Positions 2,392 through 63,517 of a stretch of DNA of 64,000 nt are shown here, piece after piece. The stretch lies in IMG/VR virus record IMGVR_UViG_2540341129_000004, one strand, 5' to 3'. A program made the position numbers and the translations under genes. Positions within the stretch are counted from its first letter, which is position 1; each line of letters begins with the position of its first letter. The notes beneath the pieces were generated by a model. It was not told the DNA's origin. It did no database searches and saw only the letters and a program-made list of their open reading frames with translations. Origin of the DNA: an uncultured virus (IMG/VR IMGVR_UViG_2540341129_000004). Its lineage: Duplodnaviria; Heunggongvirae; Uroviricota; Caudoviricetes.

Positions 2392-2428
2392 ATAAAATCG
2401 TACTTTTAATCAGAAGGGAACTGACACT

Positions 2429-2761
2429 ATGATAGTGGCTCATTTAATAGGTGGAAATGAAATAGAAGGTATTAGTAACGGGGGTGTAATCATTAACGGC
2501 GAAAAGTTAGACGCGAGCTATGAGGATTTAGCTTCTGTCTGCGGGAGTATAGAATTGGGAGATTTAAATACAAGTATTACCATTCGTAGAAGTAGTGAAG
2601 ATGTACTAAGAGATTATATTAAGTTGGTGCAAGATTTTGATGCCGAACTAGGCGAAGAATTTGTAATTAACAATCATTTAACAGAAGAAGTTCGTTGTAG
2701 CACATATCAAGTTAATTTTGAAGATAAAACACTAACATTGATAATTGATACATATGAATAA
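2429..2761 (+). CDS. Hypothetical protein
   Basis: ORF with SD. Confidence 0.65.
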   Translation: MIVAHLIGGNEIEGISNGGVIINGEKLDASYEDLASVCGSIELGDLNTSITIRRSSEDVLRDYIKLVQDFDAELGEEFVINNHLTEEVRCSTYQVNFEDKTLTLIIDTYE

Positions 2762-2888
2762 AATGTTGATTGACTGAGTGATGGAGAGTTTACTACGAAA
2801 CGAACCTTGGTAAGTTTGTTGAAAGGGAATAAAATTAAGGAGGATTCTTTATAAAATCATTCTTTTAAAGAGAGAAGGACAATCGTGA

Positions 2889-4241
2889 ATGAGCACAAAG
2901 TTATATGAAAAATCTAAATACCTAAAAAAGAAACTAGCACAAAGTGATAAGATTGATGAGTCTATAAAGAGCTTTTCTTATGACATTTATGATTCGTTAG
3001 ATCATAAGCCTGATTTCAAAAACGCACCAATTGGTATTAAACCATCTTCAGGAGAAAAGATAAGTGTTGACTTCTTTGCGGAAAAAGAGCGAATAGAAAT
3101 GCTGATCGATTGGACATTAGAAATTTATCCAATAATACTCATACTTGAGAATGAATGTAAATTACCTATTGAGAGGGATGTTTCAGAGGATTTAGATGTT
3201 TTTTTAAATAATGTGTATGATAAATTTATAAATGCATTAAATAGTTTGCCTTGTGAACAAACATTTGAACTCTCAAAGGTTGAATCAATTGATAAATTGA
3301 GAAACATGATTTCAGAATCTCTGCAGCAGAGCTTAAATGGTTCAGCAGGATCAGCTTATGAAAAATTCAAAAACGGAATGGATTACTTTATAAACGAATT
3401 AGGTGATTTGAGTGGTTTGTCATTATTAGTTGAAGAAATTCGTACTTATGACACTTTGTTTAGGATGAGAAAGGGAGAAAACGAGAATCAAGTTTTTTTA
3501 AAAGAGGATATGTTTCATGTTCCGTTTGAAAAAAGAGGGAGAATAGGTTCAAATAGATTTAGTTTGCTGGGATTTCCAAGCTTATACCTAGGAAGTTCTT
3601 TGGCAGTATGTAAGGAAGAATTGTGCGAATCAACAGCGGATTTGGAAAGCATGCAAGCTTCAGCAATAAGAATTAATGATATTGAAAATGTTCAAATACT
3701 TGATATTAGTTTACCATCATCAGTGATATCTAAAAGGTTAGGATTTTTATTTGAGTCAACTTACAAAGGAAAAACAAGTTTTAATTTTAATAACTTATTT
3801 TTACTTTGGGTTGTAAGTGCAGCTTGTTCCCTAAAAGTTAAAAACCCTCATGATAAGTTTAAACCAGAATATATAATTCCACAATTTTTAACTGAGTGGG
3901 TTAAATGCAGTTCTGAATATGCAGGTATTTGTTATATGTCAACTAAGGTAAGCGCATTGACCACTGAAAACGTGGGCTTATATAAGAATTATGTTTTCCC
4001 AATCAAAGAAAGAAAAAGTAAAGGACACTGTCCTTATTTAAGCAGTTTATTTGAAGTGTCACAACCTAAGAGTTTTTATAATTCGAACGATCTGCTTGAA
4101 TGCACTTATAATAAGGTCTCGATTTACTTAGATGAATCCATAGATAAGGATACAGAAGGAAATTCAATTCCCTACGAAAACACTGATTTAGGGAGAATGG
4201 AGGCCGTATTAATTAGCTCGTTTAGGAATAGTGACATTTAA
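2889..4241 (+). CDS. RES-domain protein (putative NAD-degrading toxin/defence effector)
   Basis: FRMR, NRFSLLGFPSLYLGSS, E, EYIIPQFLTEW and GICYMS motifs typical of RES domains. Confidence 0.7.
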   Translation: MSTKLYEKSKYLKKKLAQSDKIDESIKSFSYDIYDSLDHKPDFKNAPIGIKPSSGEKISVDFFAEKERIEMLIDWTLEIYPIILILENECKLPIERDVSEDLDVFLNNVYDKFINALNSLPCEQTFELSKVESIDKLRNMISESLQQSLNGSAGSAYEKFKNGMDYFINELGDLSGLSLLVEEIRTYDTLFRMRKGENENQVFLKEDMFHVPFEKRGRIGSNRFSLLGFPSLYLGSSLAVCKEELCESTADLESMQASAIRINDIENVQILDISLPSSVISKRLGFLFESTYKGKTSFNFNNLFLLWVVSAACSLKVKNPHDKFKPEYIIPQFLTEWVKCSSEYAGICYMSTKVSALTTENVGLYKNYVFPIKERKSKGHCPYLSSLFEVSQPKSFYNSNDLLECTYNKVSIYLDESIDKDTEGNSIPYENTDLGRMEAVLISSFRNSDI

Positions 4242-4272
4242 TAAAACAACGATTTTCAGGGATGGAGGACTT

Positions 4273-4500
4273 ATGACAGCCAAAATGATAACTGTCTGGT
4301 ACAAATACGATGATAAAGGCAACGAAGTCAAACTGAATCACATTGAAGATGGATGGGTGAATGGAGAATATCCAAAGCCTTTAGATCCGTCATTCACAAA
4401 TCAAGAAGCATGGAAGAAAAGTGATTGGGAAAGGAAACATGCTTACTTGGATGAACAATATCAAGCATTGAGCGTTCCACCAGCAAATTGGATTAGATGA
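4273..4500 (+). CDS. yopB: YopB-like hypothetical protein
   Basis: 75 aa, position and size as recalled for SPbeta yopB; SD GGAGG. Confidence 0.55.
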   Translation: MTAKMITVWYKYDDKGNEVKLNHIEDGWVNGEYPKPLDPSFTNQEAWKKSDWERKHAYLDEQYQALSVPPANWIR

Positions 4501-4528
4501 TGATCTGGAGATTTGGAGGGGAGTACAC

Positions 4529-4753
4529 ATGATCAAGGTTTATACAAGAGGTCATAAGATACCAGAAAAGATTAAGTCTTGCATCTCTGAATGGAATTAT
4601 TGGTCTTGGATTGTAGTTGCCAATACTGCAAAGAGGAATAAGGATGCGAAACGACTAATAGAGAAGATTGAAGCTGAACCAGACAGGATAGCGGAATATA
4701 AAACTGAAGACGGAATTGAAGTATATGTAAGCTACATGGATCCAGTGAAATAA
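4529..4753 (+). CDS. Hypothetical protein
   Basis: ORF with SD. Confidence 0.65.
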   Translation: MIKVYTRGHKIPEKIKSCISEWNYWSWIVVANTAKRNKDAKRLIEKIEAEPDRIAEYKTEDGIEVYVSYMDPVK

Positions 4754-4767
4754 AAAAGAGCATTAAA

Positions 4768-4950
4768 CTAAATGCTCTTCTTCATACCACACCTACGACA
4801 CTCACGTAAAAACACACCACTTTTCACTGAACTCTTGAACAAAGCATAATCACAGTTGTCACAGCGGCCATATTTAACATCGGGATACTCCTTATAATCA
4901 TAAACAACAGTTACATCGTACCCGTTAGTCTCAAAATCTTTCTCTTCCAT
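4768..4950 (-). CDS. Small Zn-ribbon protein
   Basis: CDNC...CRRC; SD AGGTG; hairpin at 4755-4780. Confidence 0.7.
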   Translation of the reverse strand: MEEKDFETNGYDVTVVYDYKEYPDVKYGRCDNCDYALFKSSVKSGVFLRECRRCGMKKSI

Positions 4951-6747: not shown

Positions 6748-6828
6748 CTGACATGACCTCTATTAAGAGGATCATGTCTTTATAAAATACGAATTTTAAA
6801 CAGATAAGTATTCCTTAAAAAATAATTA

Positions 6829-6919: not shown

Positions 6920-8074
6920 ATGAATCTTAAGCAGATGATTAAGAATGAATGTGAAAAAGACAACCAGCTCGCAGCGAAACTCTCAAAAATAGCAGGGTAC
7001 GAAAAGGTTAATGGTTTTTACAAATTCATCAACACCCCAGAGAAAGAAATGGACAACTTAGGCGGTTTAATTAATATTGTTAAGAGCTTGTTTCCGGATA
7101 ATGAAGAGCAGCTTCTAAGTGACTACTTCTTATCATTGGATCCCAATAAAAAAAGCGCAAGACAGTCTGTCGAGTATGCAGATTTAAACCAATGGAATGC
7201 ATTGACTGATAAGATCGTAAGCAATCTTTGCGAATCATCTAATTCAATAAGTCGTGAATGGGGACAGGTTTATTCCCTCCATAGAAAACTGAATAATAAT
7301 AAAATTTCTATAAATGAAGCAATCCGGGAAACTGGGAAATATAGAATTAAATCTCCTGAAATGTATTCATTTTCGAATATTATGATTATGTACGAATACT
7401 TGAAAATTGGAGAATTTGGCTTAATGAAAAGTACAGCTCAGTTTCTGGAGATTGACGAACTGTCTGATGGATTTATAAAAGATTCGTACAGTGGTCGAAT
7501 TGAACTGTTAAAGGCCAATATAAGCTTAAATGATTATGAACTAGAAGAAACCCGAAAACATTGTAGCGCTGTAATTGAAGAATGCAATAATAACAGGTTG
7601 ATTGTATTTAGTTATTTAACACTTGGGAATACATACATTTTTGAAGATTATGCTAAAGCAAAACTATGCTATGAAAAAGGCTTGAACTTTGCAAAAGACA
7701 ATAGCCATCATCATTATAAATTACGACTCGCACTTTGCTTTTTAGATAATGTCTGGGCGAGAGAAAACAAATGGGTAGATTTCGAGTCTCAAGAAATACC
7801 GGATATGATTGAAGCTGCTTTTTATTTGACTAATACTAAAGAAACTAAGAAAGCAGAAGATGTTATTAAAAAAATTGAAGAACATGATGTTCTGGATGAT
7901 GATTTAGGGTTTCTTTATCACGTTAAGGGCTTGCTGTATAATGATATGTCCCATTTTCACGAGAGTATAAAGAAATTCAAAAAGTCAGGCGATAGGCTCT
8001 GTCTAAATCTACCTTTGATTGAATTGAAAAAGCGTGGATACTCAGATGAAATATTAAATTTAATTGCGCTATAG
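6920..8074 (+). CDS. aimR: Arbitrium receptor AimR (HTH + TPR, RRNPP family)
   Basis: 384 aa, N-terminal HTH (AAKLSKIAGY...GFYKF), TPR-like helices, followed directly by aimP. Confidence 0.95.
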   Translation: MNLKQMIKNECEKDNQLAAKLSKIAGYEKVNGFYKFINTPEKEMDNLGGLINIVKSLFPDNEEQLLSDYFLSLDPNKKSARQSVEYADLNQWNALTDKIVSNLCESSNSISREWGQVYSLHRKLNNNKISINEAIRETGKYRIKSPEMYSFSNIMIMYEYLKIGEFGLMKSTAQFLEIDELSDGFIKDSYSGRIELLKANISLNDYELEETRKHCSAVIEECNNNRLIVFSYLTLGNTYIFEDYAKAKLCYEKGLNFAKDNSHHHYKLRLALCFLDNVWARENKWVDFESQEIPDMIEAAFYLTNTKETKKAEDVIKKIEEHDVLDDDLGFLYHVKGLLYNDMSHFHESIKKFKKSGDRLCLNLPLIELKKRGYSDEILNLIAL

Positions 8075-9328: not shown

Positions 9329-10387
9329 ATGGAAGCTCAAAAGAAAGCGTCAACACTAAGGGATTATTCAATATACAATAACATAAATAGGTGGTTTGAT
9401 GAATTAGATTTAAGAAACAGGGATCGAGAAACTGGAGAAATTGAAAAGTCTAATACTAGAGCCACGTATGAAAGGCATGTAAGGGAGTTTTTCAACCACT
9501 ATGCTGCCAAGGATATTGAATATTTAACTGAGAGTGACCTGGCGATTAAGAAGAGTGACCTGTATGATTATCGAACCCATTTGGCTAAAAATAAAAGCAA
9601 CTCCAATTCAACAATTAACAATAAGATTGCCGCACTGAAAAGTATGATTAAGTACCTTGAATCTGAACATGAGTGTGATGCATCTGTATTTAATTTTAGA
9701 CCTCTTCCAACAGAAAAGAACCCAGCAGGCTCTTTTGAAGGAATATCTGAAGCTGATGAATTTGCTGAGGTAGCGTATGTTACTGAGCGTCAGAACAGAT
9801 TAATGAAAAAGATGTTTATTTTGTTTAGTGCACGTACTGGTGGGCGTAAATCAGAGGTGCTTAGAGTTGGGTGGGATGATATTACTTATTCAGAAAAGCA
9901 CCAATGCTATCTCGTCAACTTTAAAAAAACTAAGCAAAAAAAGGCTAGACCAGTTGGGATTTCCACTGCTTTTTATGAAGAGTTGTTGCTGTTAAAGCAA
10001 GAGTATGGGGAACATGAGCTTTTATTTCATAAGTTAACAGTTGATTCAATACAGGATATGTGGAATCGCGTATGTAGAGTTATGGGCATTCCCAAAGAAA
10101 GAAAGATAACTCCGCATAGTTTACGCAATACTGCAACAAACTTTTCTTACAGCGTTAATGGTGATATTAAAAAAGTGGCAGCGTTCTCTGGCCACAGTAA
10201 TATCAATACTTTAAATGACCATTATTTAGTCAATGAAAGGGATTATTCTCAAGATCCAGGGGTTTTGGTTGATCAAAAAGAAGACATGTCCTTTTTAGAT
10301 GATGTTACCTTAGAGCAATATAAAGAATTCTTTTTAAAATCAGACATGTATATACAGAGTAAACTTAAAATGTTTTTGAACAAGTGA
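9329..10387 (+). CDS. yopP: Tyrosine recombinase-family protein YopP/SroD
   Basis: TGGRKSE, K, HSLR, GH and terminal Y (DHY) catalytic set present. Confidence 0.85.
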   Translation: MEAQKKASTLRDYSIYNNINRWFDELDLRNRDRETGEIEKSNTRATYERHVREFFNHYAAKDIEYLTESDLAIKKSDLYDYRTHLAKNKSNSNSTINNKIAALKSMIKYLESEHECDASVFNFRPLPTEKNPAGSFEGISEADEFAEVAYVTERQNRLMKKMFILFSARTGGRKSEVLRVGWDDITYSEKHQCYLVNFKKTKQKKARPVGISTAFYEELLLLKQEYGEHELLFHKLTVDSIQDMWNRVCRVMGIPKERKITPHSLRNTATNFSYSVNGDIKKVAAFSGHSNINTLNDHYLVNERDYSQDPGVLVDQKEDMSFLDDVTLEQYKEFFLKSDMYIQSKLKMFLNK

Positions 10388-10463: not shown

Positions 10464-11813
10464 GTGTCTGAAGTTTTGTTAACAACGGATAAACTTTATA
10501 AGTTAAAAACTGAAATAGAGAAAAATCTTATTGATATTAAAAGTGATTCCAATATGGTGAAGGAATTAAAAGCCACAATGGCGGACAAATACAAGGCACT
10601 CCCTGGTTATATCCAAGAAATTTTAAATAATAATGATAACAACGTACAGCGTTTAAACGAAAAAGAAGTGTACATTGTTTCAAAAGAGATGTATTCAATT
10701 CTTGGGGCTCCAGCTTTAGATCCCTCAAATTATTTTCCAACCAGATTGGCAAAAGAGCTTGAAGGTGGGAGAGTATTCGCCGGTGAAGAAGTAGTTAAGC
10801 TACCATACAAGTTCAAAAATGTGATTAAAATTAAAGAGGATAACTATGTCACTTCCATTACTGCCAAGGAACTTAGTGAGTTATATAATAGCTCCATCCT
10901 GCAGTACAATTACAATACTCAGCGTGAAGGAAAATACATTAAGGGCAGCCTTATCCCTGTACCTAAAACAAACCCTAAATCAGTTGATGAGATCAAAGAA
11001 TTGTTTATTAAAGGCGATTTAATTGTATCAATGTTAACTTTTAACGCTCGTCTTGGAACATCTGATGGTGATGAAGAAGTTGAATATGATCCAAGCGACC
11101 AAACCCTCACTGTAACACGAGGAACCTTATTAGATGCTCTTGATGGATATCATCGAATTTCAGGTATTGTTAAGGCCATTGCTGAAGTCCCTGAATTAGA
11201 TCAACCATTCATTTTAAATGTGCTCAATTACGATGAAGAAAAGGCTAAGGTTCACTTTGCTCAAATGAATACCATAAACCCAGTTGAAAAATCCAGAATT
11301 GAAGAATTGGGACAAAAACGGTATTCTTCAACCGTTGTCGAGCAGCTGAAATTTAAAAGTGAACTTAAAAATAAAATAAGTCCACAAAGTGAAATTGGTA
11401 TCGATAGCAATTTCCTTGTAACATATTATACTTTATCAGAAGCTATAGACGATGCATTTGAGCTGAAATCTCGAAAAGATGCGTTGAAAATTGCGAAATA
11501 CTTGGTAGACTTTTTTGATAACCTTTTTTATGCCTTCCCAGACGAATTTCTTGAAGATGATTTATCGTCCATTAGAAAGCAATCATACATTAATCATAAC
11601 GTAATGTTTTACGGTTATGTTTATTTGGCCAAGAAGATGAAGGAAAACAATGTAGAACTAAACAAGCTTGAAAATATCCTTAATACGATTGACTTTAGTA
11701 AAAGCGGAAGAGTGTTTGAAGAATTAGGAAGACAAAATAATGAGAATCAACTAAAGAATATTATGAAGAAGAAACTTAAGCGAATGTTTTATGATGAAAT
11801 TGCTGTTGTTTAA
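10464..11813 (+). CDS. yopQ: YopQ/SroE, DndB/ParB-like DGxHR protein
   Basis: LDGYHR motif; synteny. Confidence 0.8.
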
Positions 11814-11833: not shown

Positions 11834-12817
11834 ATGAGTGAAATATATAATGCTGAATTGAAGGAAAAGTTTTTAGAGAAATACGAAAGTGAAGCAACAA
11901 GAAACCATTATTGGCTAAGGCTAAGGGATTTCTCAGCTACAGAAAAAATACTTCAAAAAGACATATTTAATTTTTCTTTGGAAGAGCTGCGTACGTTATT
12001 TTTCGATTTGGATAGCAAATCTATAGACTCATTAAGAGGAGCACGAGCTGTAATTGGACAATACACAACCTGGGCAATGGAAAATGGCTTGGCAAACAGT
12101 AACATCAACAAAGTGTATCAGATACAGGATGGTGACTTAAAGCAGTTTATAGATAAAAACAAAAAAACACTATTCACCAATAAAGAAGTAGAAGAGTATG
12201 TTGATTTTATGATTAATTATCAGGATAAGGCCATGATACAGGCTATTTATGAAGGTATAGATGGTTATCAGCATTCAGAGTTACTGAATTTAACAGGTGA
12301 CGATTTACTCGATGATAACAAGGTAAAGCTAGTAGATGATAAACATGGTGTAAGAATAATTACTGTAAGCGATAAATGTTATGAGTTACTTAAGCGTGCT
12401 AATGACCAAAGAACATATCATCTTAGCAATGGTTCGCCAGATAGTAGCCTTAAAAACAAATTTGCCACATTAGTTAAAAGCGAAAATATTTTTAGGCTAA
12501 AATATAAGAGCTCTAATCAGAGTATGAAAGCTGACAAATTTTTAGTTCATCGTTCTTTTAGTCAGTTTCAAAAATTTTTAGAAGAACCCTTCTTTACACC
12601 TAAAAATCTTATCAATTCAGGAAAGCTCAACATGGCGTATGCGATATATAAAGAGAAGGGTGAATTAAAAGTACCTGATTATAAACAAATAACTCGACAA
12701 TATGGGTTCTTGAATGAAGACTCGGAGTTTAATTCACAAACACTGAGGAAAGTAGTGAATATGGAGAACTTAGAAAAATATTGTGTCAAGTCTGAAGTAA
12801 TTGAGACTAATTCTTAA
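11834..12817 (+). CDS. yopR: Master repressor YopR/MrpR (catalytically degenerate integrase fold)
   Basis: 327 aa integrase-like protein lacking the R and HxxR residues ([14 protein letters not shown]); synteny. Confidence 0.85.
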
Positions 12818-13037: not shown

Positions 13038-13259
13038 TCAATGTTTGATTTTCCATTCATAGAGGTCTTCAATCGAACAGTTTAGGGCAATAGCAATGAT
13101 TCTCGCTGTTTTTATATTCATAGAAGGTCTAACGCCATTAGCGTAATCACTTAACCTTTGCTTACTGATGCCTGTTAGGTTCGAAAGTTGCCCTAGGGAC
13201 ATTCCTCTACGTTCAAGGAGAATGGATATCAAACATTGTCCGATTTCAACCTCAAGCAT
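13038..13259 (-). CDS. yopS: YopS XRE-type HTH regulator
   Basis: LGQLSNLTGISKQRLSDYANG...IAIALNCSIEDLY; SD AGGAGG. Confidence 0.85.
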   Translation of the reverse strand: MLEVEIGQCLISILLERRGMSLGQLSNLTGISKQRLSDYANGVRPSMNIKTARIIAIALNCSIEDLYEWKIKH

Positions 13260-14152: not shown

Positions 14153-14377
14153 TTGATTAATGAACCAACTAACAATCAAATAAGAACTATGGTTTTAAGG
14201 AAATATGTAAAGCTTTTAGCATCATGTGAAAGGTCTTTACGCAGCATAGAGAATAATGAAATCAGAATGGCAATTGGAGACCTGGACTTTGTTAAAGACA
14301 ATTTAGAGGAAATACAATACATACTTCGTGATGTTGTGAATCAGAATGAATATTTCAAGAGTAAAAATAAAATGTAA
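14153..14377 (+). CDS. Hypothetical protein
   Basis: ORF, SD AAAGGAG upstream. Confidence 0.6.
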   Translation: MINEPTNNQIRTMVLRKYVKLLASCERSLRSIENNEIRMAIGDLDFVKDNLEEIQYILRDVVNQNEYFKSKNKM

Positions 14378-14412
14378 GTTTTATTTAGAATTTAAATTAA
14401 GGAGGACACAGA

Positions 14413-15466: not shown

Positions 15467-15584
15467 CCTTATAAGTTTAACCGGTTAAAAGATGCATTTT
15501 AAAGTGTTTCAAGGGGAGTGATGAAATTGGAAAAAGGATGATTTGAAAAAAGCACTTGAATACAAATTAACGGGAGGTAAAACG

Positions 15585-16598: not shown

Positions 16599-16901
16599 AT
16601 GAGAAGATATCAAACACAGGAACAAGTTGCATTAAACTTCTTGCTTTCAGAGGCCAAAGAAGAGCTTAGATTATGTGAGGAAAGAATCGAGTTTCATGCA
16701 AAACATAGAGAGTATGCTCTCATGAGGATGGAGAAAGAAATTGAGGCAAAGGCAAATGCGAAAATTGAAAAATTATCTTCGTTGCTTGAGATGGGAAGAG
16801 AGTCTTGGTCAAACTTACCTTCTCTTTTACAAATTGGAATAGTGAACACTGAGGGAGAATCTGTAATTCAAGAAGAGCGTTTTTCTGAAGAAATTGAATG
16901 A
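16599..16901 (+). CDS. Hypothetical protein
   Basis: ORF with SD GAGGAG. Confidence 0.65.
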   Translation: MRRYQTQEQVALNFLLSEAKEELRLCEERIEFHAKHREYALMRMEKEIEAKANAKIEKLSSLLEMGRESWSNLPSLLQIGIVNTEGESVIQEERFSEEIE

Positions 16902-16936
16902 AGTTGAAGTTTTAAAGAAAAAGGAGCTGTTTTAAA

Positions 16937-17967: not shown

Positions 17968-18086
17968 GGAATCACCCACTCGTATGTAAGTTAGGTATGA
18001 GTTTACCAATTAAAGGGGATTTTCTCAAGGCAATAAACATTAAAGTTAAATTAGAATCGTGATTTAAACGGAATAGGAGGAAGCAA

Positions 18087-18566: not shown

Positions 18567-18607
18567 TTGAAAGATAGTTTTCAAAGTGAAAATGGGGGGA
18601 AGTAACA

Positions 18608-20119: not shown

Positions 20120-20280
20120 CCAAGAACGAACGGGAAGGTTATTTAAACAGACTTGCTGAATACGGATTAATAGAAGAAGAGAAAATGACGAATATTTTAA
20201 ATTGTTTTGTGGGCTACGATATTTGGTGATTATTATGGAATCAAAATAAAATAGTTATTTTATTTAAAAGGAGAGAACAG

Positions 20281-22601: not shown

Positions 22602-22837
22602 GAATCAGAGAGGACAGATAGCATCGATGAAGATAAAACAGAGATTTTATAAAGATAAAAGCAAATTGATTATGGAGGTAGCAGAATGAGATACAAAGCG
22701 AAAGTGAAAGCGGTAGCCGAAATGGAAGTATGGGTACATGAAGATGCCGCGGGAAATATCGAAATAGAATACGTTGAATATGTGGATGACATAGAGGATT
22801 TTGAAAATGTTAGACCAATGGACGGGAGGTAAGGGGA

Positions 22838-23308
22838 ATGAGGGAAATTAAGTTCAGAGGAATGGGTATTAACGGTGAATGGTATTACGGCAATATATCA
22901 ATCATCAAACAAAGAATCAAGAGCATGGGCATTGATCCTGGTTCTTATATCTCTAATAAAGCTGGTGTTCCATTTGCTTACAAAGTGAGGCCGGAAACAG
23001 TTGGGCAATTCACCGGATTGAAGGATAAGAACGGCCGGGATATTTATGAAGGGGATATACTTCGTGTATGGGAAGAGAATGAACATGTTCCAAATCGTGA
23101 TAGTGGTGGCGGCATTATCGACTTTGACAAAATCGAAGGGTTTTCACAGTTAGGAGTAGTCGACTTCAAGAGTGCTTGGTTTACTTATGAAACTAAAAAA
23201 CATCAAAAAGAACGAGAAGAAGATATCTTTGCACCATTAGATTTTACTAATAACTATGAAGTCACTGGGAACATCTATGAAGATTCAGAGCTTATAAAAT
23301 CTAAATAA
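22838..23308 (+). CDS. YopX-family protein
   Basis: MREIKFRG...GQFTGLKDKNG..IYEGDI...EVTGNIYE. Confidence 0.9.
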   Translation: MREIKFRGMGINGEWYYGNISIIKQRIKSMGIDPGSYISNKAGVPFAYKVRPETVGQFTGLKDKNGRDIYEGDILRVWEENEHVPNRDSGGGIIDFDKIEGFSQLGVVDFKSAWFTYETKKHQKEREEDIFAPLDFTNNYEVTGNIYEDSELIKSK

Positions 23309-23569
23309 AAACGATATTTTACAGAAAGAGGATGAATAAAAATGTTTACTTGTTTCTGCAACGAATGTGAAAAAGTAATTGAAAAAGATGAAGTTGATTT
23401 AGTAGAAGTCCCTTGGGAAGGAGATTGGGAACACGTGCATTTAAAATGCGGTAGCATTGTGTCTTGGATTTAACTTGTATGTCTAATTTAAGGGGGTGAT
23501 AACAATGTGAGTTACCTATGTGATTTGAGTTTTAAGAATAAAACAAAAATAAAAAGGAGTGGTTATTAA

Positions 23570-26615: not shown

Positions 26616-26706
26616 ATAAACAAAAAGTTGACAGGGCTTAACCAGCTTTGTCAACTTTATTAGATTAAATAAAATTGTAGTTTTAACAAGATTGGGAGAT
26701 GGATAT

Positions 26707-38884: not shown

Positions 38885-39592
38885 ATGAATAAAAATAAAA
38901 TAAAAACACACATTTCCAGATCTGTTTATGGTATGATGATTTTAATTCCCTTAACCACTTTTTCTTACATAAGTTATGAGCAGAATTTGCATAAAACAGA
39001 GGGAAATGAAGACTCAATAAAAGAATCATTTTATAAGAAGCCTAGACAGATTAGGATCCCATCAAGTGAGAATATTGTCTTACGGCTATTTAAAAAAGCT
39101 CAAACGAACAAAGAACAACAATTAAAAAGGCATACAGAGAAGATTATCTCAGCAAAACTCATTAAACCTAAGCAAAGTAAGAAAAGGCACAGGAAAGGAG
39201 GTGAGACGGTAAAGCATAAACTTTTTAAGAATAAAAATAAAATATATAAACACAAAAAAGAAAACAAGACGCCGGCAGCAAAAAAAACTATCCAGGTTAA
39301 GCTGAGTGCTTATATTGCCCACTGCCAAGAAGGATGCACAGGAACCACAAGAACAGGTGTTGATGTCACTCGATCAATCTATTACAAAGGGTATCGTGTT
39401 ATTGCAACCGATCCAAGTGTTATTCCTTTGAATTCAATTGTTGAAGTAAGAATTGGTGGAAAAACATTTAAAGCAATTGCAATTGATACTGGAGGCGCAA
39501 TAGTTGGAAATAAAGTGGACTTGCTCGTAGCAACCGAGCGTGACGCAATTAATTTTGGCAAGCAAAGTGGGACAATCTCGATTATTAGTTAG
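38885..39592 (+). CDS. yorM: Membrane-anchored 3D-domain (cell-wall lytic) protein
   Basis: SAY...IATDPSVIPLNS...AIDTGGAIVGNKVDL. Confidence 0.85.
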   Translation: MNKNKIKTHISRSVYGMMILIPLTTFSYISYEQNLHKTEGNEDSIKESFYKKPRQIRIPSSENIVLRLFKKAQTNKEQQLKRHTEKIISAKLIKPKQSKKRHRKGGETVKHKLFKNKNKIYKHKKENKTPAAKKTIQVKLSAYIAHCQEGCTGTTRTGVDVTRSIYYKGYRVIATDPSVIPLNSIVEVRIGGKTFKAIAIDTGGAIVGNKVDLLVATERDAINFGKQSGTISIIS

Positions 39593-40851: not shown

Positions 40852-40975
40852 AAGAATTACCTCCTAGGTTTTGATTGTGGTTACACCTCCAGTCTAGCAT
40901 GTTAAATATTTGAAATGTGTGAAGTGTTTGTGAAACTGTTTGAAATATCTCATTTATTTAGAAAAGGGTGAAAAA

Positions 40976-41245
40976 ATGGGGCTCAAAATAAAATTTAGAG
41001 ATCAAATATTAGAGTTGCGTAGAAAAATGTCATTGCAATTACATCGGTTATTAGAAGACTTGACATTTTGGACTTTCAATGAATATGAAGTTCAAAAATG
41101 TATTGATGAGTATGCATTAGAGTTAGTCGAGAAGAGAACAGGCAATAAATATAAGCTTCAAATTATAGACAAGAACAAAAATGTTTGGGGCGAATTAAAA
41201 CCTGAAGAGCCAGGTTGTATTGGGTATTTTGTACAATCTACATAA
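40976..41245 (+). CDS. Hypothetical protein
   Basis: ORF with SD. Confidence 0.6.
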   Translation: MGLKIKFRDQILELRRKMSLQLHRLLEDLTFWTFNEYEVQKCIDEYALELVEKRTGNKYKLQIIDKNKNVWGELKPEEPGCIGYFVQST

Positions 41246-41276
41246 AAGATCAATTTTATCGAAATGAGGTTGTGAA

Positions 41277-41555
41277 ATGGAAGTTAAATGGTTAGTTATT
41301 TTTAATGATTGTAAAACCGGCAGTTCTTTGAGTGAGCTTACATATAGTAAGGATGGGGAAGGAAACCACCTAAGATTAGAGTCAATGGTGCCTCGTACAG
41401 GTGACTATATTGTAGGAGGAGATCTGTCATCAGATATAAATGATAAGAGGTGCTTTATTGTGAAAAATGTCTTCTGGAATCTAGATAGGAGAGATATAGA
41501 GGTTTATCTTTATGAGGTTGACAGGACTGTTTTCCCTTTATATAAATCGCTATAA
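41277..41555 (+). CDS. Hypothetical protein
   Basis: ORF bounded by palindromic sites. Confidence 0.6.
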   Translation: MEVKWLVIFNDCKTGSSLSELTYSKDGEGNHLRLESMVPRTGDYIVGGDLSSDINDKRCFIVKNVFWNLDRRDIEVYLYEVDRTVFPLYKSL

Positions 41556-41605
41556 AATTTGTCTTTTAAAGAGTAAAAATAAAATACAAGAGGTGAATCA
41601 ATCAT

Positions 41606-42548: not shown

Positions 42549-42604
42549 GAATAAAAATAAAATATTCCTTTTATAGAGAATCAAATGAAATGGAGAGATG
42601 TTAA

Positions 42605-43162: not shown

Positions 43163-43369
43163 ATGAACAATGAAAAATGGGTAGTTGAGGTCTATGCAGG
43201 TAAAGAATTCGTTGGAAAGATGACTGGCTTAGATGGAAAGTTAGCAGTATTTAATAAAGGAGAGCAAGCAATGACTGCAGCTCAAGAACTGAAAGCAGGA
43301 GGCTCATTAGGAGTATGGTGCAAGCTTGCAAAACTGGATGGGTGTGAAAATATTGCAGCTAGTCATTAA
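43163..43369 (+). CDS. Hypothetical protein
   Basis: SD GAGGAG. Confidence 0.55.
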   Translation: MNNEKWVVEVYAGKEFVGKMTGLDGKLAVFNKGEQAMTAAQELKAGGSLGVWCKLAKLDGCENIAASH

Positions 43370-43529: not shown

Positions 43530-43887
43530 ATAAAATTCAATTTTTTTTTATAAAGAAAGGAGAAAACCATGAGAGACATTACATCCGAATTCACATTAAG
43601 AGGAGTAAACAGAAAAACTCTGAAACTCCTGGCAACTAAGAGTATTGATTATCCAGATACATGGGTAAAAGTGCAAATTGGAGATCAAATGGCAGAAGTT
43701 GAGGCCAAACAACTATTGGTGGCAATAACGGCATTTAATGAAATGTGAGAAGGGGGGTAACTGAAATGCAGGATAAATTAACGTCAACAATTCACTTTAT
43801 TGAGGTCAATCGGGATGAAATGGGTGACAAGAAATCACTAAACATGCTTTTAAAAGCCTTAAAGAAAATCATCAATGAGGAAGAAAA

Positions 43888-45340: not shown

Positions 45341-45366
45341 CTGGATAAAGATTGAGGAGGATTGTA

Positions 45367-45738
45367 ATGAGAGGAATAAAGTTCCGTTCTTGGATTAAGG
45401 ACAAAAAAGAGATGATTTATGAATTTACTTTAAAGCAGCCAACGACCAGTCATTGTAAGAAAAACATCCTTATGCAGTACACGGGACTTAAGGATAAGTA
45501 CGGTCGGCATATTTATGAGGGGGACATCATCCAAACATCTTATATGAAAACTAGAGGTTGCGCTTACCGTTGTGTTTTCTCTGCAGAGTTCGGCGGATAC
45601 TTATTTGAGCCTTTTGTTATTGGAGATAAAGATGCTCCTCTAATAGGTGTCGAGGAATTTGCCCAACAGTGGGAAGATGTCAAACACGGTGAAGTTATCG
45701 GAAATATTTATGAAGATCCAGAGATTTTAAGTAATTGA
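45367..45738 (+). CDS. YopX-family protein (second copy)
   Basis: IKFRSW...MQYTGLKDK..IYEGDI...EVIGNIYE. Confidence 0.88.
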   Translation: MRGIKFRSWIKDKKEMIYEFTLKQPTTSHCKKNILMQYTGLKDKYGRHIYEGDIIQTSYMKTRGCAYRCVFSAEFGGYLFEPFVIGDKDAPLIGVEEFAQQWEDVKHGEVIGNIYEDPEILSN

Positions 45739-45775
45739 ATAAAAGTTTTATTTTAAACAGAAGAGGAGTTTTAAT

Positions 45776-46105
45776 ATGACAAACGTAAACATTACCTTTT
45801 ATACGGAAAAGGTAAATAAATATCTGGCAAATGAGTATCGATTAATAACTGAAATAACCTCAAAAGCTAAAGAAGAAAATGATGAGCTTCTTCTTTTGAG
45901 AGTTTCAGAGGCAGATGTAGAAAAGGTAAAGGACTGTCTGAATACTGGTAAACGGGTCATTCTTAAACTGAAAGAAGACAAGGATGAAAATGAGAAGTGG
46001 TTCAAACTAATTCAATTTAAAGCAGAATATTTAGCAATGTTCATTTGTAAAGCTTCATTAAATCTAGAAGAAATCTTAGGGGTGCAAATTGACATAAAAA
46101 GATGA
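45776..46105 (+). CDS. Hypothetical protein
   Basis: ORF bounded by palindromic sites. Confidence 0.6.
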   Translation: MTNVNITFYTEKVNKYLANEYRLITEITSKAKEENDELLLLRVSEADVEKVKDCLNTGKRVILKLKEDKDENEKWFKLIQFKAEYLAMFICKASLNLEEILGVQIDIKR

Positions 46106-46130
46106 TTTTAAAGGGATAAGGAGGAAGCAA

Positions 46131-48078: not shown

Positions 48079-48320
48079 CAATTCCTAAGGAGGACGAATA
48101 GATACGGCTTGAATCTAGATAAAATCACAGTTTCATAGGAAGGGGAAACAAAATGAGTGCAGCAAGAAAGTGGAGAGATTTGAGAAGTAAGCTAATTGGA
48201 TATAAGGCATTCGGTAAGTTCAGTGATGTTGTTATTGACCATATTCTCAATGATATGGATGAGTTGGACGTAAGACACGAAAAAGATAAAAACAAAAAAT
48301 AGAGAAAAGGGAGTTGTGGA

Positions 48321-53816: not shown

Positions 53817-54011
53817 TACAAGCCCTGGCTTTGATCATGATGTTTGTCCAGTGGAGGGTCTCAGCCAGGGTACAACTTAAAATACTCAAAAAGCTCGACA
53901 ATTATGCCCAACAAAGCGGTTGTTTCATGAAAAGGTTTTAAAAACAGGGGTGTTGATGGAATGCACATCTCTATAAAAGAAGACTTTTATAGAAAAGTGA
54001 GGTGAGATTCA

Positions 54012-59638: not shown

Positions 59639-59768
59639 TGAAGCGACCAGCACCGTATGAATTAAACGATTCAATAGCAGCGCTGAAGCTCGGCGTACCT
59701 GAACACCTTTATCATCACGTTTGGTGCCTTATTTACGAAATCGAAGCATTACAAGAGGAGGCCACAAG

Positions 59769-60110
59769 ATGATCGATAAATTGACGAAAGATCAACTCGA
59801 AGTAATCCGAAAGCGTTCGGAGAAGGCTACGGAAGGCCCGTGGCGAATCGGGAAGCAATCACCAAACGGATTAAATAATATCGGAACAATTGGCGGATTA
59901 CTGACTGCACAAACAACGGATGAAGAGGACGCAAATTTCATCGCAAACGCCCGCCAAGATATTCCGTCGCTACTCGATCACATTACTTTTCTAAACGAAG
60001 TAATATCGAGCTGCCGATGCGCTGAGTGTGGCGATGAATTGGGGGAAGATTGGGCAACTAACAACGGAGTAGCGTTTTGCAATTACTGTGCTGGACTTAA
60101 TTCTTTATGA
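59769..60110 (+). CDS. Ead/Ea22-like phage protein
   Basis: EKATEGPW...DANFIANARQDIPSLL; CAEC..CNYC. Confidence 0.7.
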   Translation: MIDKLTKDQLEVIRKRSEKATEGPWRIGKQSPNGLNNIGTIGGLLTAQTTDEEDANFIANARQDIPSLLDHITFLNEVISSCRCAECGDELGEDWATNNGVAFCNYCAGLNSL

Positions 60111-60139
60111 AATCTGTATTTTAAAGAGAAGGTGATACA

Positions 60140-62217: not shown

Positions 62218-62226
62218 GGTGAATTC

Positions 62227-62448
62227 GTGAAGAAAAAATTAGATGATGTGTGGACAGTTGTATATAAAGATCATGATGAAGAACCTATGGCCTTTTCATA
62301 CTATTCCAAAACAGATGCGGAGATTGCAAAACAGACAATTGAAAAATCAAACGGTACTCAGCTAGTTAATGAAAAGGAAGAAGTCGTAGGGCATATTCAT
62401 TTAGACTGGGTCTATTTAATCCAAGGGAGGTTAATTAAAACCGACTAG
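62227..62448 (+). CDS. Hypothetical protein
   Basis: SD GAGGTGA. Confidence 0.6.
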   Translation: MKKKLDDVWTVVYKDHDEEPMAFSYYSKTDAEIAKQTIEKSNGTQLVNEKEEVVGHIHLDWVYLIQGRLIKTD

Positions 62449-62494
62449 GAGAGAGAAAATAAAATTCTAATTTTATTGAAAAGGGGAGATTAAA

Positions 62495-62854
62495 TTGAAT
62501 AAGAGAGTAAAGAAGAAGATTCGAAATAGAGTTGAATCATGGATTATTTATAAGAATCCTAATGGGTCATATAATTCATTGGGTGTAAACAAATTTGGAG
62601 AAGTACCCTCCCATGCACGCCCTTTGCATCCTGAATATGAAACATTAGGAGAGGTCTTAAATTCATTCCCTAAAGGATTTAACTTTCCTTTGGTTGAGTT
62701 GACAAAAGAAGAAGAAAACATGTTGTTCTTTGATCATCATCCTACAGAGTGCGGCTGCTGGCACACAGGAGATAGAGATACGTGGGGTATTTGGGGACAG
62801 AGGTATTTATTGAAAAAAGTATCGGATGGGTGTTGCGAATACGTCTCAAAATAA
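62495..62854 (+). CDS. Hypothetical protein
   Basis: ORF bounded by palindromic sites. Confidence 0.6.
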   Translation: MNKRVKKKIRNRVESWIIYKNPNGSYNSLGVNKFGEVPSHARPLHPEYETLGEVLNSFPKGFNFPLVELTKEEENMLFFDHHPTECGCWHTGDRDTWGIWGQRYLLKKVSDGCCEYVSK

Positions 62855-62895
62855 AATATTTATTTTCTGATTTTATCCAGAGAGGGGAAATGATA

Positions 62896-63135
62896 ATGGA
62901 TTACACAAAACTGTTAGAGGAAAAGTACCCAATTAGCATTATTCAGTATGTAAGACAGAGAGAAGGTTTAGATAAGAAAGATGTCTCCAAGGATAAAGAA
63001 ATCTTAGAAATGACGAACTCAGAAGTATTTAGAGAGGTTCTAGCATGGAATGGTTTTATTGGAGGATGGGATCACATAATTAAAGACTGGATTAAGAGCA
63101 TTTATGGAATCGATCTTGATGACTTTGAAAAGTGA
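62896..63135 (+). CDS. Hypothetical protein
   Basis: SD AGAGGGG. Confidence 0.6.
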   Translation: MDYTKLLEEKYPISIIQYVRQREGLDKKDVSKDKEILEMTNSEVFREVLAWNGFIGGWDHIIKDWIKSIYGIDLDDFEK

Positions 63136-63297
63136 AACCATGTCATATGGACAAAGTAATAAAGTTGACTATGCTTCGACTGGTGATGAAACTGATTTTG
63201 ATTGTCCTAAATACGAAGGGAATCATCTTGAAGAAATAGACAACAGCATTTAAAAGAGCAGTAAAAGGCCTCAAATTTTCACAGGGGGATTGCTATT

Positions 63298-63474
63298 ATG
63301 ATTGGAAAAGCATTATACAATAATTCATGGTTTGAAGTAGCAAATATCAACTTTGACACAGGGCATATCATAATTAAAAACGACAGTGAAAACTCGTTGG
63401 GTTTGAGAATAGGTAAAACACTAACACTTGATCTTGATTACGTCGATGATGTAAAAATTGGACTTCTGCTGTAA
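63298..63474 (+). CDS. 58-aa hypothetical protein
   Basis: SD AGGGGG; hand translation. Confidence 0.5.
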   Translation: MIGKALYNNSWFEVANINFDTGHIIIKNDSENSLGLRIGKTLTLDLDYVDDVKIGLLL

Positions 63475-63517
63475 ATGAATAAAATGTTGATTTTATCGGA
63501 AGGGAGAGAATTTAATA

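Follow-up and report, generated by a model that had tools for sequence, protein, structure and literature searches.

TAAAA-N6-TTTTA palindromes with copy-specific spacers mark probable gene-module joints in SPbeta-like Bacillus phages

The window, the whole 64,000-nucleotide stretch analysed here, belongs to an SPbeta-like Bacillus phage in which a strict 16-base palindrome, TAAAA-N6-TTTTA, stands between small genes. The protein genes considered are as follows.

4768..4950, minus strand, 60-aa CxxC...CxxC protein, conserved in 9/9 genomes
6920..8074, AimR (PF22871), downstream of the site at 6783
9329..10387, plus strand, YopP-like orphan Xer-type tyrosine recombinase (PF00589, E=2.4e-14) with an N-terminal SAM-like domain
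10464..11813, plus strand, YopQ-like DndB/ParB-fold protein (PF14072 DndB, E=4.5e-16), neighbour of YopP
11834..12817, plus strand, MrpR (YopR)-like master repressor of the phi3T type (PF22823, PF22822)
13038..13259, minus strand, YopS-like Cro/C1-type HTH protein (PF13443, PF01381)

A sequence-only reading of this DNA had counted 17 exact copies of the palindrome, with about 1 expected by chance, and had proposed a comparison with shuffled DNA. We count 18, the first at 2393 and the last ending at 63495, and the enrichment stands: dinucleotide shuffles of the window averaged 0.88 copies, peaked at 4 and reached 18 in 0 of 100. When the distance between the arms was varied from 0 to 20 bases, the window held 18 pairs at N6 and 0 to 5 at each other spacing. 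All nine degenerate copies listed earlier are present as well, five with one arm mismatch and four with two. The sites are given below with their six-base spacers, called addresses here, and were compared with seven other SPbeta-like phages.

2393..2408, exact, TCGTAC; 2 nt past the stop of ORF 1945-2391, 21 nt before ATG 2429; address in 5 others
2852..2867, exact, TCATTC; 22 nt before ATG 2889; address in 3 others
4242..4257, degenerate, one arm mismatch, CAACGA; directly after the stop of ORF 2889-4241; address in 0/7 others
6783..6798, exact, TACGAA; upstream of the aimR-like gene; address unshared
14368..14383, exact, TGTAAG; spacer contains the stop codon of ORF 14153-14377; address in 5 others
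15486..15501, exact, GATGCA; address in 7/7 others
16899..16914, decayed, two arm mismatches, TTGAAG; address spacer kept, exact counterpart in SPBc2
18052..18067, decayed, two arm mismatches, TCGTGA; exact counterpart in SPbetaL2
18568..18583, decayed, two arm mismatches, TGAAA-GATAGT-TTTCA; exact GATAGT site in 6 others
20247..20262, exact, TAGTTA; 19 nt before ATG 20281; address in SPbetaL2
22634..22649, exact, CAGAGA; address in BUCT083
23306..23321, exact, ACGATA; gives the TAA stop of ORF 22838-23308; address in Goe11 and Goe12
26670..26685, exact, TTGTAG; address unshared
39018..39033, exact, GAATCA; inside the yorM-like ORF 38885-39592 (3D domain) when that ORF is read at its longest
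40941..40956, decayed, two arm mismatches, TATCTC; exact counterparts in SPR and phi3T
41243..41258, exact, GATCAA; gives the TAA of ORF 40940-41245; address in 6 others
41553..41568, exact, TTTGTC; gives the TAA of ORF 41277-41555; address in 7/7 others
42558..42573, exact, TATTCC; address in 7/7 others
43531..43546, degenerate, one arm mismatch, TTCAAT; exact counterparts in 7/7 others
45740..45755, exact, GTTTTA; 2 nt past the stop of ORF 45352-45738, 21 nt before ATG 45776; address in 7/7 others
46095..46110, exact, AGATGA; spacer contains the TGA stop of ORF 45776-46105
48120..48135, degenerate, one arm mismatch, TCACAG; address unshared
53974..53989, exact, GAAGAC; 23 nt before GTG 54012; address unshared
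60108..60123, degenerate, one arm mismatch, TGAAA-TCTGTA-TTTTA; gives the TGA stop of ORF 59721-60110; exact in SPR, SPbetaL2 and phi3T
62460..62475, exact, TTCTAA; 20 nt before TTG 62495; address in 7/7 others
62852..62867, degenerate, one arm mismatch, TATTTA; gives the TAA of ORF 62495-62854; exact in 4 others
63480..63495, exact, TGTTGA; 23 nt before ATG 63518; address in Goe12

Typically, the motif follows one gene's stop codon and precedes the ribosome-binding site of the next gene. According to the window's ORF list, 14 of the 18 exact sites end 7 to 42 nt ahead of the next start codon, mostly 19 to 23 nt, and the others (6783, 39018 and cases of the 22634 type) have longer gaps or overlap an ORF. 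The sequence-only reading had described this placement correctly, including the five sites that supply a stop codon themselves (23306, 41243, 41553, 60108, 62852), the four single genes bracketed by site pairs (2889-4241, 41277-41555, 45776-46105, 62495-62854) and the core replication block, which has zero exact copies between 26686 and 39017. The sites cluster in the early region, and the motif lies on the sense strand in plus-strand as well as minus-strand gene blocks. In the B. subtilis phages it is often longer, TCTAAA-TAAAA-N6-TTTTA-TTTAGA (11+6+11).

Recognition of the motif looks all-or-none, judging from its variants. One-mismatch versions are not enriched at N6 relative to N5/N7 (398 one-arm variants at N6 vs 490 at N5/N7, beside ~290 exact sites), nor are symmetric double variants of the arms, and no compensatory arm changes were found; the stem is invariant and the loop free. 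Decayed-arm sites in the window's phage exceed its control by ~18, which hints that the arms may be dispensable in that phage.

Eight SPbeta-like phages carry 26 to 36 sites per genome, compared with 0 to 5 for other spacings and 0 to 2 for the reversed pattern. A distant B. pseudomycoides prophage contig has 28 copies at N6. A similar frequency in host DNA had been named in advance as a finding that would refute the cassette-site idea; the whole B. pseudomycoides genome showed no chromosomal excess (105 copies vs 111 of a control pattern). More distant complete relatives contain 10, 21 and 30 sites vs 1, 9 and 7 controls, and of 50 IMG/VR loci that surround a YopP homologue, 49 have TAAAA-N6-TTTTA as their top 5-N6-5 dyad. 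Our literature search found no published description of TAAAA-N6-TTTTA joints.

The 264 sites of the eight phages fall into 81 spacer classes. That the spacer differs at almost every copy, as noticed earlier, extends to the relatives, since each of the eight genomes has every one of its spacers only once. Spacers also avoid near-identity: 9 pairs lie within one mismatch where the null gives 42.9 (0 of 500 shuffles went that low), single genomes have 0 to 2 such pairs vs 2.7 to 7.0 expected (P 0.008 to 0.094), and the independent prophage C23 has 0 vs 2.7 expected. The same genomes tolerate a 15-bp repeat in 13 to 17 identical copies. At sites with two conserved flanks, spacer identity (0.984) barely exceeds that of the flanks (0.97), suggesting no strong separate constraint on the spacer. 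The orthologues of the site at 39018 in other phages have AAGTCA or GAGTCA between conserved flanks. At 46095 the spacer AGATGA differs by one base from GGATGA, an address that other phages carry.

Shared spacers are perfectly collinear with those of SPBc2 in circular order (8 to 22 shared), and the genes beside them vary. The GATGCA address (15486) has five left-flank and five right-flank types in seven combinations, GATCAA (41243) six left and four right, and GTTTTA (45740) four left and five right; at TTTGTC (41553) the yorV-like right flank is conserved, with four types of left flank. In SPBc2, the GATCAA and TTTGTC addresses flank the methylase gene mtbP, where the window has a 92-aa ORF. 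Left and right flanks are reassorted both ways at 16 of 30 addresses, and a single combination is found at 5 of 30. With the same spacers in the same order and the neighbouring genes swapped, each copy resembles a stationary joint, with a label of its own, at which phages trade genes.

Sequence identity across a site runs from 0.96 through 1.00 in the arms and 0.97 in the spacer to 0.29, with the same course in reverse on the opposite side, and the step falls exactly on the outer edges of the 16-mer. Homology between related phages ends where the sequence-only reading had placed the limits of exchangeable modules. Among site pairs between genomes, the spacer was kept in 74 of 79 with only the left flank alike and in 118 of 140 with only the right flank alike; these 192 same-spacer pairs compare with only ~8 whose spacers differ at at least 3 positions, and another 221 pairs have the spacer, but no flank, in common (~22 by a rough random-spacer estimate), all counts resting on eight related and hence non-independent genomes. 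The alignment of SPbeta-like genomes that had been proposed as a check gave breaks at 411 of 541 motif junctions and 1467 of 3737 others. At gaps of 30 to 45 bp the break fraction is 0.72 with the motif vs 0.32 without it, about twofold; the site nearly fills the intergenic gap, so a break at its edge is in part a break at gene ends. Mosaic blocks start at a site in 98 of 833 cases and end at one in 88 of 818 (chance, 0.33%), and ~88% of all block boundaries are located away from sites. The 221 flank-unlike pairs and the 16 reassorted addresses call for crossovers inside the site. We consider it very probable that crossovers did take place at the sites and that these are genuine joints between modules.

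Several conserved proteins might act at the motif. YopP homologues occur in all eight phages, in the distant prophage C23 and in 50 IMG/VR loci. The best NCBIfam match of the window's protein is of the XerA type (75.5 bits vs a cutoff of 220), and YopP of the window's type, of phi3T and of C23 has R, K, HxxR, H and Y in place. The passages on these genes in PMC8612738 and PMC10516654 name SprA as the integrase and give YopP no assigned function. By its sequence, YopP is the best candidate enzyme for the sites, a choice that we make only tentatively: in the SPbeta type a Lys replaces the second catalytic Arg (HSFK), and YopP types are only ~32% identical to one another, yet the site arms are invariant, both of which count against it. 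Its YopQ-like neighbour is conserved in 9/9 genomes. The YopS-like protein (9/9 genomes, 43 to 79% identity, similar putative recognition helix) is an alternative candidate binder, and the 60-aa CxxC protein, 83 to 87% identical in B. subtilis phages and 58% in C23 and matched by no Pfam or NCBIfam family, is another possible one. We also considered whether the motif could be SPBRE, the MrpR operator, and rejected this: the SPBRE sequence is different, and MrpR is not the motif's binder. The ChAP-seq section of PMC10516654 places all ten SPbeta MrpR peaks at SPBRE promoters.

The mechanism originally suggested was integron-like: an integron-type integrase would capture promoter-less cassettes at attC-like sites and move them from one position to another. 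Bracketing of single genes by site pairs, all co-oriented, would agree with it, as would a few indels in which one address's left arm is fused to another's spacer (e.g., phi3T 80190 vs SPBc2 87599). However, cassettes stay at their address (192 pairs vs ~8), integron attC sites are long and structured whereas the phage sites are sequence-invariant 16-bp dyads, the phage tyrosine recombinase scores 32 bits vs 265 for the integron-integrase model cutoff, and an attI/Pc-like array head is not apparent. Address fidelity largely refutes this idea, to which we attach next to no probability; what survives of the proposed tyrosine-recombinase-type cassette system is the core-site geometry (a 6-bp centre between inverted arms, extendable to 11+6+11) and the delimitation of modules. 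A signal in polycistronic early mRNA, for processing, downstream-cistron stabilisation or termination/re-initiation coupling, would suit a sense-strand position between stop codon and ribosome-binding site in both gene-block orientations, and in the SPBc2 record the TATTCC copy, the counterpart of 42558, is marked as a stem_loop. But minimum free energies are only 0 to -4.1 kcal/mol, with z near -2 in 1 of 10 folds, the arms do not covary, and there is no Rfam family; the processing alternative raised earlier is weakened, and an RNA-level role appears very improbable. If the sites were operators only, at which a small phage HTH dimer, e.g., YopS-like, tunes or shuts off early genes, their link to mosaic boundaries would merely reflect a position between genes of the variable early region. 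The geometry resembles that of phage 434 operators, with half-site centres 11 bp apart, one helical turn; retention of a Cro/C1-type HTH protein in 9/9 genomes and the early-region clustering also fit. Yet the sites lie inside operons rather than at promoters, their junctions break twice as often as motif-less ones of equal gap size, crossovers inside the site are called for, and the over-dispersion of spacers would be left unexplained, making a purely regulatory role improbable.

Regulation and exchange could also be combined, if a regulator or architectural binding site or other expression element was selected at gene junctions and swapping is a rare by-product in which host RecA or a phage annealase acts on 16 to 28 identical bases, followed by selection for intact genes. 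Module swapping of this short-homology kind has been suggested both at the PeSL cassettes of T4-type phages and at lambdoid boundary sequences. The constant position just 5' of the ribosome-binding site suggests an expression role, most boundaries lie away from the motif, and another conserved repeat, TAAAAATAAAA, also forms some block boundaries. All switches in three phi3Ts-SPbeta hybrids made in the laboratory fall within stretches of full parental identity (29 to 87 bp or 1.4 to 18 kb), so ordinary homologous recombination suffices for them; the recombination-site analysis in the preprint on these hybrids puts 15 of 16 sites in regions of homology. T4-type phages offer a precedent, their modules being shuffled through recombination between short regulatory cassettes, according to the part of PMC2839356 that covers them. 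On the other hand, promoter or terminator features are not visible in the site, a free RNA hairpin is weak (9 of 10 folds no better than shuffles), and one-mismatch variants are unenriched, unlike those of typical operators. The motif is a boundary 2.4 to 4 times more often than TAAAAATAAAA (153 of 275 pairs vs 29 of 124), and unique, over-dispersed spacers are unexpected if 16 bp of homology is a weak substrate, as the tolerated 15-mers imply. We regard a by-product of this kind as unlikely, albeit a serious contender.

The best reading of these comparisons is that the motif is a protein-recognised DNA dyad serving as an addressed crossover joint. A dedicated site-specific exchange mechanism is the one we favour, though we rate it slightly below an even chance: the invariant arm of only 5 bp is short for a tyrosine recombinase, and the mostly off-site boundaries, the homology-based hybrids and the 's' fragment separating phi3Ts from phi3T, which has a site at neither end, count against it. 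Under such a mechanism, a paired protein would read TAAAA-N6-TTTTA on double-stranded DNA, and each copy's own 6-bp centre would be its address. Exchange would be spacer-matched and conservative, of the tyrosine-recombinase kind, possibly carried out by YopP, and analogous to cassette exchange at heterospecific lox/FRT sites. Two copies that share a centre would then cross over within the 16-mer, and the genes to one side would be exchanged with the gene order left intact.

From comparison of related genomes, the 16-mer TAAAA-N6-TTTTA, a dyad of two fixed 5-bp arms around a spacer of six free bases, reads as an addressed crossover joint, the address being its spacer class. The window holds 18 copies, whereas dinucleotide shuffles hold 0.88 on average and 4 at most, and 0 of 100 shuffles reach 18; the enrichment estimated in the sequence-only reading is thus borne out, and the nine degenerate copies it listed are all present, with one or two arm mismatches. 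A scan of spacings from N0 to N20 across the window gives 18 copies at N6, and no other spacing exceeds 5. The whole phage carries 26 dyads and seven other SPbeta-like phages (SPR, SPBc2, phi3T, Goe11, Goe12, SPbetaL2, and BUCT083) carry 30 to 36 each; across these eight phages, control spacings of 3 to 10 except 6 give 0 to 5 matches and the reversed pattern 0 to 2.

Dyads are spread across the whole genome, on both gene strands. They lie at or directly after a stop codon, usually 19 to 23 nt before the next start codon and just 5′ of the ribosome-binding site, which confirms the claimed order of stop codon, site, and Shine-Dalgarno sequence; the minus-strand late block has the identical layout once read in gene orientation. 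The left arm is often entered by unrelated ORFs, which end in ...S-K-stop. The outer flanks are partly symmetric (consensus TCTAAA-TAAAA-N6-TTTTA-(T/A)(T/A)n-AGA), in many copies the arms reach 11 bp, and phi3T has one copy that forms a perfect 11+6+11 palindrome. At the two end positions of the spacer, base preferences are reverse-complement-symmetric, and 0 of 81 spacers are self-complementary. Among the bracketed genes, the ORF at 2889-4241 (450 aa, between sites 2852 and 4242) has a weak RES-domain match (E=0.003, below cutoff) and could encode an accessory toxin-like or defence-related product.

The window, bases 62000-125999 of the 131.6-kb phage genome, is assigned to the SPbeta group of Bacillus phages. 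Its top DNA hits, 75 to 95% identical over parts of the query, are SPR, SPBc2, phi3T, the Goe and SPbetaL phages, and BUCT083. The helicase of the window has a 100% identical counterpart on a 133-kb contig (L053) of a record titled as an actinomycete, which is odd given the Bacillus-phage kin of the window. The lysogeny module is of the phi3T type, and AimR and the YopP-, YopQ-, and MrpR/YopR-like proteins are 76 to 77% identical to the phi3T versions and 31 to 39% identical to the SPbeta versions. The genes of this region that matter below are as follows.

9329..10387, plus strand, YopP-like protein
10464..11813, plus strand, YopQ-like protein
11834..12817, plus strand, MrpR/YopR-like protein
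13038..13259, minus strand, YopS-like protein

Across the eight complete phages, 264 sites fall into 81 spacer classes. Many classes are found in all eight genomes, yet each with several unrelated left and right flanks; at the GATGCA address (window 15486), the flank combinations are A-a, A-c, A-d, B-b, C-b, D-d, and E-e. Among addresses present in at least 4 genomes (n = 30), 16 show two-way reassortment of flanks, 9 one-way reassortment, and 5 a single combination.

Spacer sharing in pairs of sites from different genomes, by flank similarity
Both flanks alike: same spacer in 135/146
Left flank only alike: same spacer in 74/79
Right flank only alike: same spacer in 118/140
Neither flank alike: same spacer in 221/30,088 (rough random-spacer expectation, ~22)

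In left-only pairs, identity falls in a step, from 0.96 in the flank, 1.00 in the arms, and 0.97 in the spacer to 0.68 in the next 6 nt and then 0.29 to 0.36, and the profile of right-only pairs is its mirror image. In pairs with both flanks conserved, identity is barely higher in the spacer (0.984) than in the flanks (0.97), which counts against a dedicated mechanism. It is the same-spacer pairs with unrelated flanks, and the two-way reassortment, that call for crossovers within the 16-mer.

When whole genomes are compared, a 13-bp interval at a dyad takes in 98 of 833 block starts and 88 of 818 block ends. The expectation that gene gain and loss breakpoints fall at the motif thus holds in that block edges occur there far above chance (0.33%), but not as a general rule, as ∼88% of block boundaries are elsewhere. 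A dyad is present at 152 of 1066 same-strand gene junctions. At the level of genome pairs, homology breaks at 411 of 541 dyad junctions versus 1467 of 3737 other junctions, a comparison in which, the dyad nearly filling the intergenic gap, a break at gene ends will in part count as one at the dyad edge; the excess persists in every gap-size class. These homology breaks and the reassortment of flanks support the view that the sites delimit exchangeable genes.

Break fraction at gene junctions with and without a dyad, by gap size
30-45 bp: dyad 0.72, other 0.32
46-60 bp: dyad 0.92, other 0.50
61-100 bp: dyad 0.87, other 0.49
101-300 bp: dyad 0.73, other 0.50

A food-fermentation metagenome contig (run X6) is identical to the window over 39000-43133 except for one patch: all 37 differences and 4 small indels are within 41295-42404, between the dyads at 41243 and 42558. 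The patch looks like an import from another lineage, but it is only weakly suggestive of exchange at dyads because its right edge stops 154 bp short of site 42558. Two DNA "joints" in public runs were discarded; both fall on copies of the TAAAAATAAAA repeat and resemble assembly-graph effects.

The spacers appear to behave as addresses. No spacer is duplicated within a genome in any of the eight, and the circular order of the 8 to 22 spacers shared with SPBc2 is perfect in 7 of 7 comparisons. Pairs of spacers within a genome that differ by at most one mismatch number 9, versus 42.9 in column shuffles (0 of 500 as low), a pooled figure that overstates the evidence since the eight genomes are related; taken singly, each genome has 0 to 2 such pairs where 2.7 to 7.0 are expected (P = 0.008 to 0.094), always in the same direction. 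An independent B. pseudomycoides prophage has 0 such pairs versus 2.7 expected (P = 0.056). The eight genomes carry 13 to 17 identical copies of a 15-bp repeat, so that short repeats are not in themselves selected against for being identical.

Of the nine degenerate copies in the window, seven retain, unchanged, the spacer of an address whose site is intact elsewhere among the phages. In this phage, 33 sites with decayed arms have known address spacers, compared with 15 in the control; the other seven phages have no excess (21 to 29, control 27 to 37). Copies with one or two arm changes and an intact spacer include those at window positions 16899, 18052, 18568, and 40941. Loss of a gene was considered as the cause of decay: 18 phi3T genes are absent here and present in the other 6 phages, but none offers a clean candidate, as 0 of 18 have a homologue in the B. 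pseudomycoides prophage.

The dyad is phage-specific and old. The prophage in the B. pseudomycoides genome is a distant relative, with a helicase 41% identical to that of the window, and its contig has 28 dyads at N6 versus 0 to 7 at other spacings, 27 of the 28 in the first 75 kb. The genome as a whole has 105 dyads and 111 control-pattern matches, so the check for a similar frequency in host DNA, made in this species, finds no genome-wide excess, only one in the prophage contig. The prophage dyads likewise lie between stop codons and ribosome-binding sites but have different outer flanks. Three further distant complete relatives have 10, 21, and 30 dyads versus 1, 9, and 7 control matches, and the dyad is the top 5-N6-5 palindrome in 49 of 50 IMG/VR loci around YopP homologues. 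Selection, and not mere inheritance, therefore acts on the 5+5 arms.

Recognition of the dyad appears to be all-or-none and on DNA rather than RNA. Among nine genomes (the eight phages and the B. pseudomycoides prophage), there are ∼290 exact sites, and one-mismatch arm variants are not enriched (398 at N6 versus 490 at N5/N7). Symmetric double variants, that is, compensatory arm changes, are not enriched in the same genomes either, and the idea of pairing arms, prompted by the TGAAA...TTTCA copy at 18568, was dropped for this reason. Free-RNA hairpin energies are 0 to −4.1 kcal/mol, with 9 of 10 folds no better than those of shuffles, and an Rfam search with the dyad gave no match; a reading as RNA structure was set aside on these grounds. 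Invariant arms, a free center, fixed spacing, and symmetry are, we infer, what a dimer on double-stranded DNA would read. Separately, when a 10-kb stretch was compared with two raw RNA-seq runs ("organism C"), the sole match was ∼50 nt at 43094-43144, in the ORF at 43082-43369. The two runs thus do not contain the phage. The match has ∼3000 and ∼170 reads in them, and on either side the reads pass into unrelated sequence; two other runs have contig breaks at the same place, where an Rfam search gave nothing meaningful. It therefore looks like a short sequence common to a highly expressed locus elsewhere.

Which protein might act at the dyad? In this family, SprA-type or other integrases carry out integration (PMC8612738). 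YopP, an orphan Xer-type tyrosine recombinase, is encoded in every genome examined, and PMC8612738 and PMC10516654 describe it as a core gene expressed from the prophage. The YopP-like protein of the window has PF00589 and an N-terminal SAM-like domain, with the residues R, K, HxxR, H, and Y; among NCBIfam models a XerA type fits best, though far below cutoff. The R-K-HxxR-H-Y set is found in 3 of 4 aligned YopP types, whereas the SPbeta-type YopP has HxxK: Goe12 YopP (L012, 8868-9941) has HSFK, with Lys for the second catalytic Arg, where the homologues of the window (9329-10384), phi3T, and B. pseudomycoides show HSLR or HSFR. This substitution and an identity of only ∼32% among YopP types count against YopP as the enzyme. 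Its neighbor YopQ has a DndB/ParB-like domain. The YopS-like Cro/C1 helix-turn-helix protein and a 60-aa CxxC protein are kept in 9 of 9 genomes and are candidate binders. The HU-like YonN was rejected as a binder, since the 140 kb of the distant, motif-rich prophage contig that were examined contain no homologue.

MrpR, the master repressor, binds SPBRE and has a tyrosine-recombinase fold without recombinase activity (PMC10516654). SPBRE is, like the dyad, an intergenic repeat of this phage family, and its binder has the fold of the enzyme class suspected for the dyad. We derived SPBRE as ACAAATACAAAnAATATGTATA from the SPBc2 promoters named in PMC10516654. It lies in SPBc2 at yonP, yonT, yonX, aimR, yopV, yorE, yorM, yorZ, and yosX, overlapping the −35/−10 region. 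Identity of the two elements was rejected, as the sequences differ and, unlike the dyad, SPBRE overlaps promoters; its ∼10 SPBc2 copies overlap none of the 34 SPBc2 dyads, and this phage has none. The ChAP-seq of MrpR described in PMC10516654 gave ten peaks only, all at promoters. MrpR is an unlikely reader of the dyad because those peaks are at SPBRE only. In SPBc2 yorM (L001, 15187-15903), an SPBRE promoter and a dyad both lie inside the annotated 5′ part, a good ribosome-binding site follows the dyad, and the true start is probably downstream of it; the yorM-like ORF of the window (38885-39592) has a dyad at the equivalent position. Another repeat is (A)GAATAAAAATAAAATA, whose 11-mer core recurs in 22 exact copies along the window (e.g., 6832, 8576, 14072, 27536, 42291, 57146, and 57235), often directly upstream of −35/−10-like hexamers. 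In gene orientation it has 26 to 33 copies in phages with a phi3T-type MrpR homologue (this phage, phi3T, and BUCT083) but only 7 or 8 in the five SPbeta-type phages, which carry SPBRE instead; it may be an operator or UP-like element in the SPBRE role for the phi3T-type repressor.

Among known recombination systems, integrons do not fit, and the proposal of an integron-like system fails. The YopP-like protein scores 32 bits on the IntI-type model TIGR02249 (cutoff, 265), and its best match is Xer-type. attC sites, which are long imperfect palindromes, are defined by their structure and not by their sequence, whereas dyads are 16 bp with invariant arms and no compensatory arm changes. Cassettes also keep their address: 192 pairs with one flank alike have the same spacer, versus ∼8 with spacers differing at 3 or more positions, and order is perfectly collinear. 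The resemblance to tyrosine-recombinase core sites stands, in the inverted arms, a strict N6 within the 6- to 8-bp range, and the 11-bp arm extension; in the sequence data, exchange partners share spacers, and spacers are unique and over-dispersed within genomes, which bears only indirectly on whether centers must match between partners. Heterospecific lox and FRT sites, used with Cre and Flp in recombinase-mediated cassette exchange (RMCE), have inverted arms around a short asymmetric center, and sites with the same center pair. The dyads are similar in this architecture and apparently in this partnering, in having many mutually distinct centers per genome, and in the replacement of content between or beside matched sites with order kept; RMCE is an engineered use, whereas here the exchange would be natural and would involve ∼30 addresses per genome, and only 5 bp per arm are invariant.

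The pdif modules of Acinetobacter plasmids (PMC6449649) use host XerC/XerD at sites with two different arms and move as units between plasmids. Dyads resemble Xer/dif and pdif sites in their 11+6+11 extended form, in being multiple sites in accessory regions that flank discrete adaptive genes, and in the Xer-type recombinase family that is involved for pdif and suspected here. They differ from pdif in having symmetric arms, modules that keep to fixed addresses, and a suspected enzyme encoded by the phage. Lambdoid phages have boundary sequences. Promoter-early stem-loop (PeSL) cassettes of T4-type phages have functional promoters and terminators and copies that are alike (PMC2839356). Both are, like the dyads, short conserved intergenic elements among small nonessential genes where related phages differ, and dyads do lie at insertion, deletion, and replacement boundaries between related phages. 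Unlike PeSLs, however, the dyad has no promoter or stable hairpin (RNA folds are weak, and the 16-mer reads without a −35/−10 arrangement), and each copy has its own center.

Dedicated, spacer-matched, site-specific exchange at the dyads, with YopP as the candidate enzyme, is a serious reading to which we give nearly as much credence as doubt. Its main competitor is recombination through short homology at a dyad that is regulatory or bound by protein, in the manner of T4 PeSLs (PMC2839356), which we consider rather improbable. It gains from three laboratory phi3Ts-SPbeta hybrids, in which every parental switch is in a tract identical in both parents (29 to 87 bp, or 1.4 to 18 kb), from the hybrid-phage preprint, whose authors place 15 of 16 recombination sites in regions of homology, and from the ∼88% of block boundaries away from dyads. 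The one junction that the hybrid work gives as "non-homologous," near yosA, is close to the TATTCC address. The long identical tracts of the hybrids have 4 ends coinciding with dyads, the switches themselves not being placeable at a site, and the fragment that distinguishes phi3Ts from phi3T has a dyad at neither end. Against short homology, TAAAAATAAAA, a repeat of comparable length taken as a control, marks a boundary in only 29 of 124 informative pairs, versus 153 of 275 for the dyad.

A pure operator or RNA signal is left with what probability remains. The dyads lie inside operons, between stop codon and ribosome-binding site, and weaker one-mismatch variants are not enriched, unlike what a classical operator for a helix-turn-helix dimer would lead one to see; the weak hairpins, the lack of compensatory arm changes, and the absence of an Rfam match speak against an RNA signal. 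Under dedicated exchange, each genome would hold ∼30 heterospecific core sites with common arms and a unique 6-bp overlap "address" each. YopP, perhaps with the ParB/DndB-like YopQ, would join a site only to the same-address site of a co-resident relative, and phage and prophage would frequently trade modules, the gene order never being scrambled. That this amounts to a natural cassette-exchange system run by a phage Xer-like enzyme, a dedicated mechanism for ordered mosaicism rather than a by-product of homologous or illegitimate recombination, we propose only tentatively and think on balance unlikely. We found no published description of the dyad in the literature covered on SPbeta and phi3T, which included an SPbeta review and a comparative-genomics preprint.

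How phage genomes become mosaic while keeping gene order is a long-standing question, usually answered by random illegitimate recombination with selection or by relaxed homologous recombination. The SPbeta/phi3T model family offers a discrete, countable, individually labeled element at the points of module exchange, and since each copy is so labeled, the question becomes testable in B. subtilis 168 with ordinary genetics. If a dedicated enzyme does act, the dyads would be a natural counterpart of RMCE and a ready-made multisite engineering tool; if none does, they would still be the clearest Gram-positive example of linker-mediated modular shuffling. The reading also points to a possible role for the conserved and unexplained yopP and yopQ genes.
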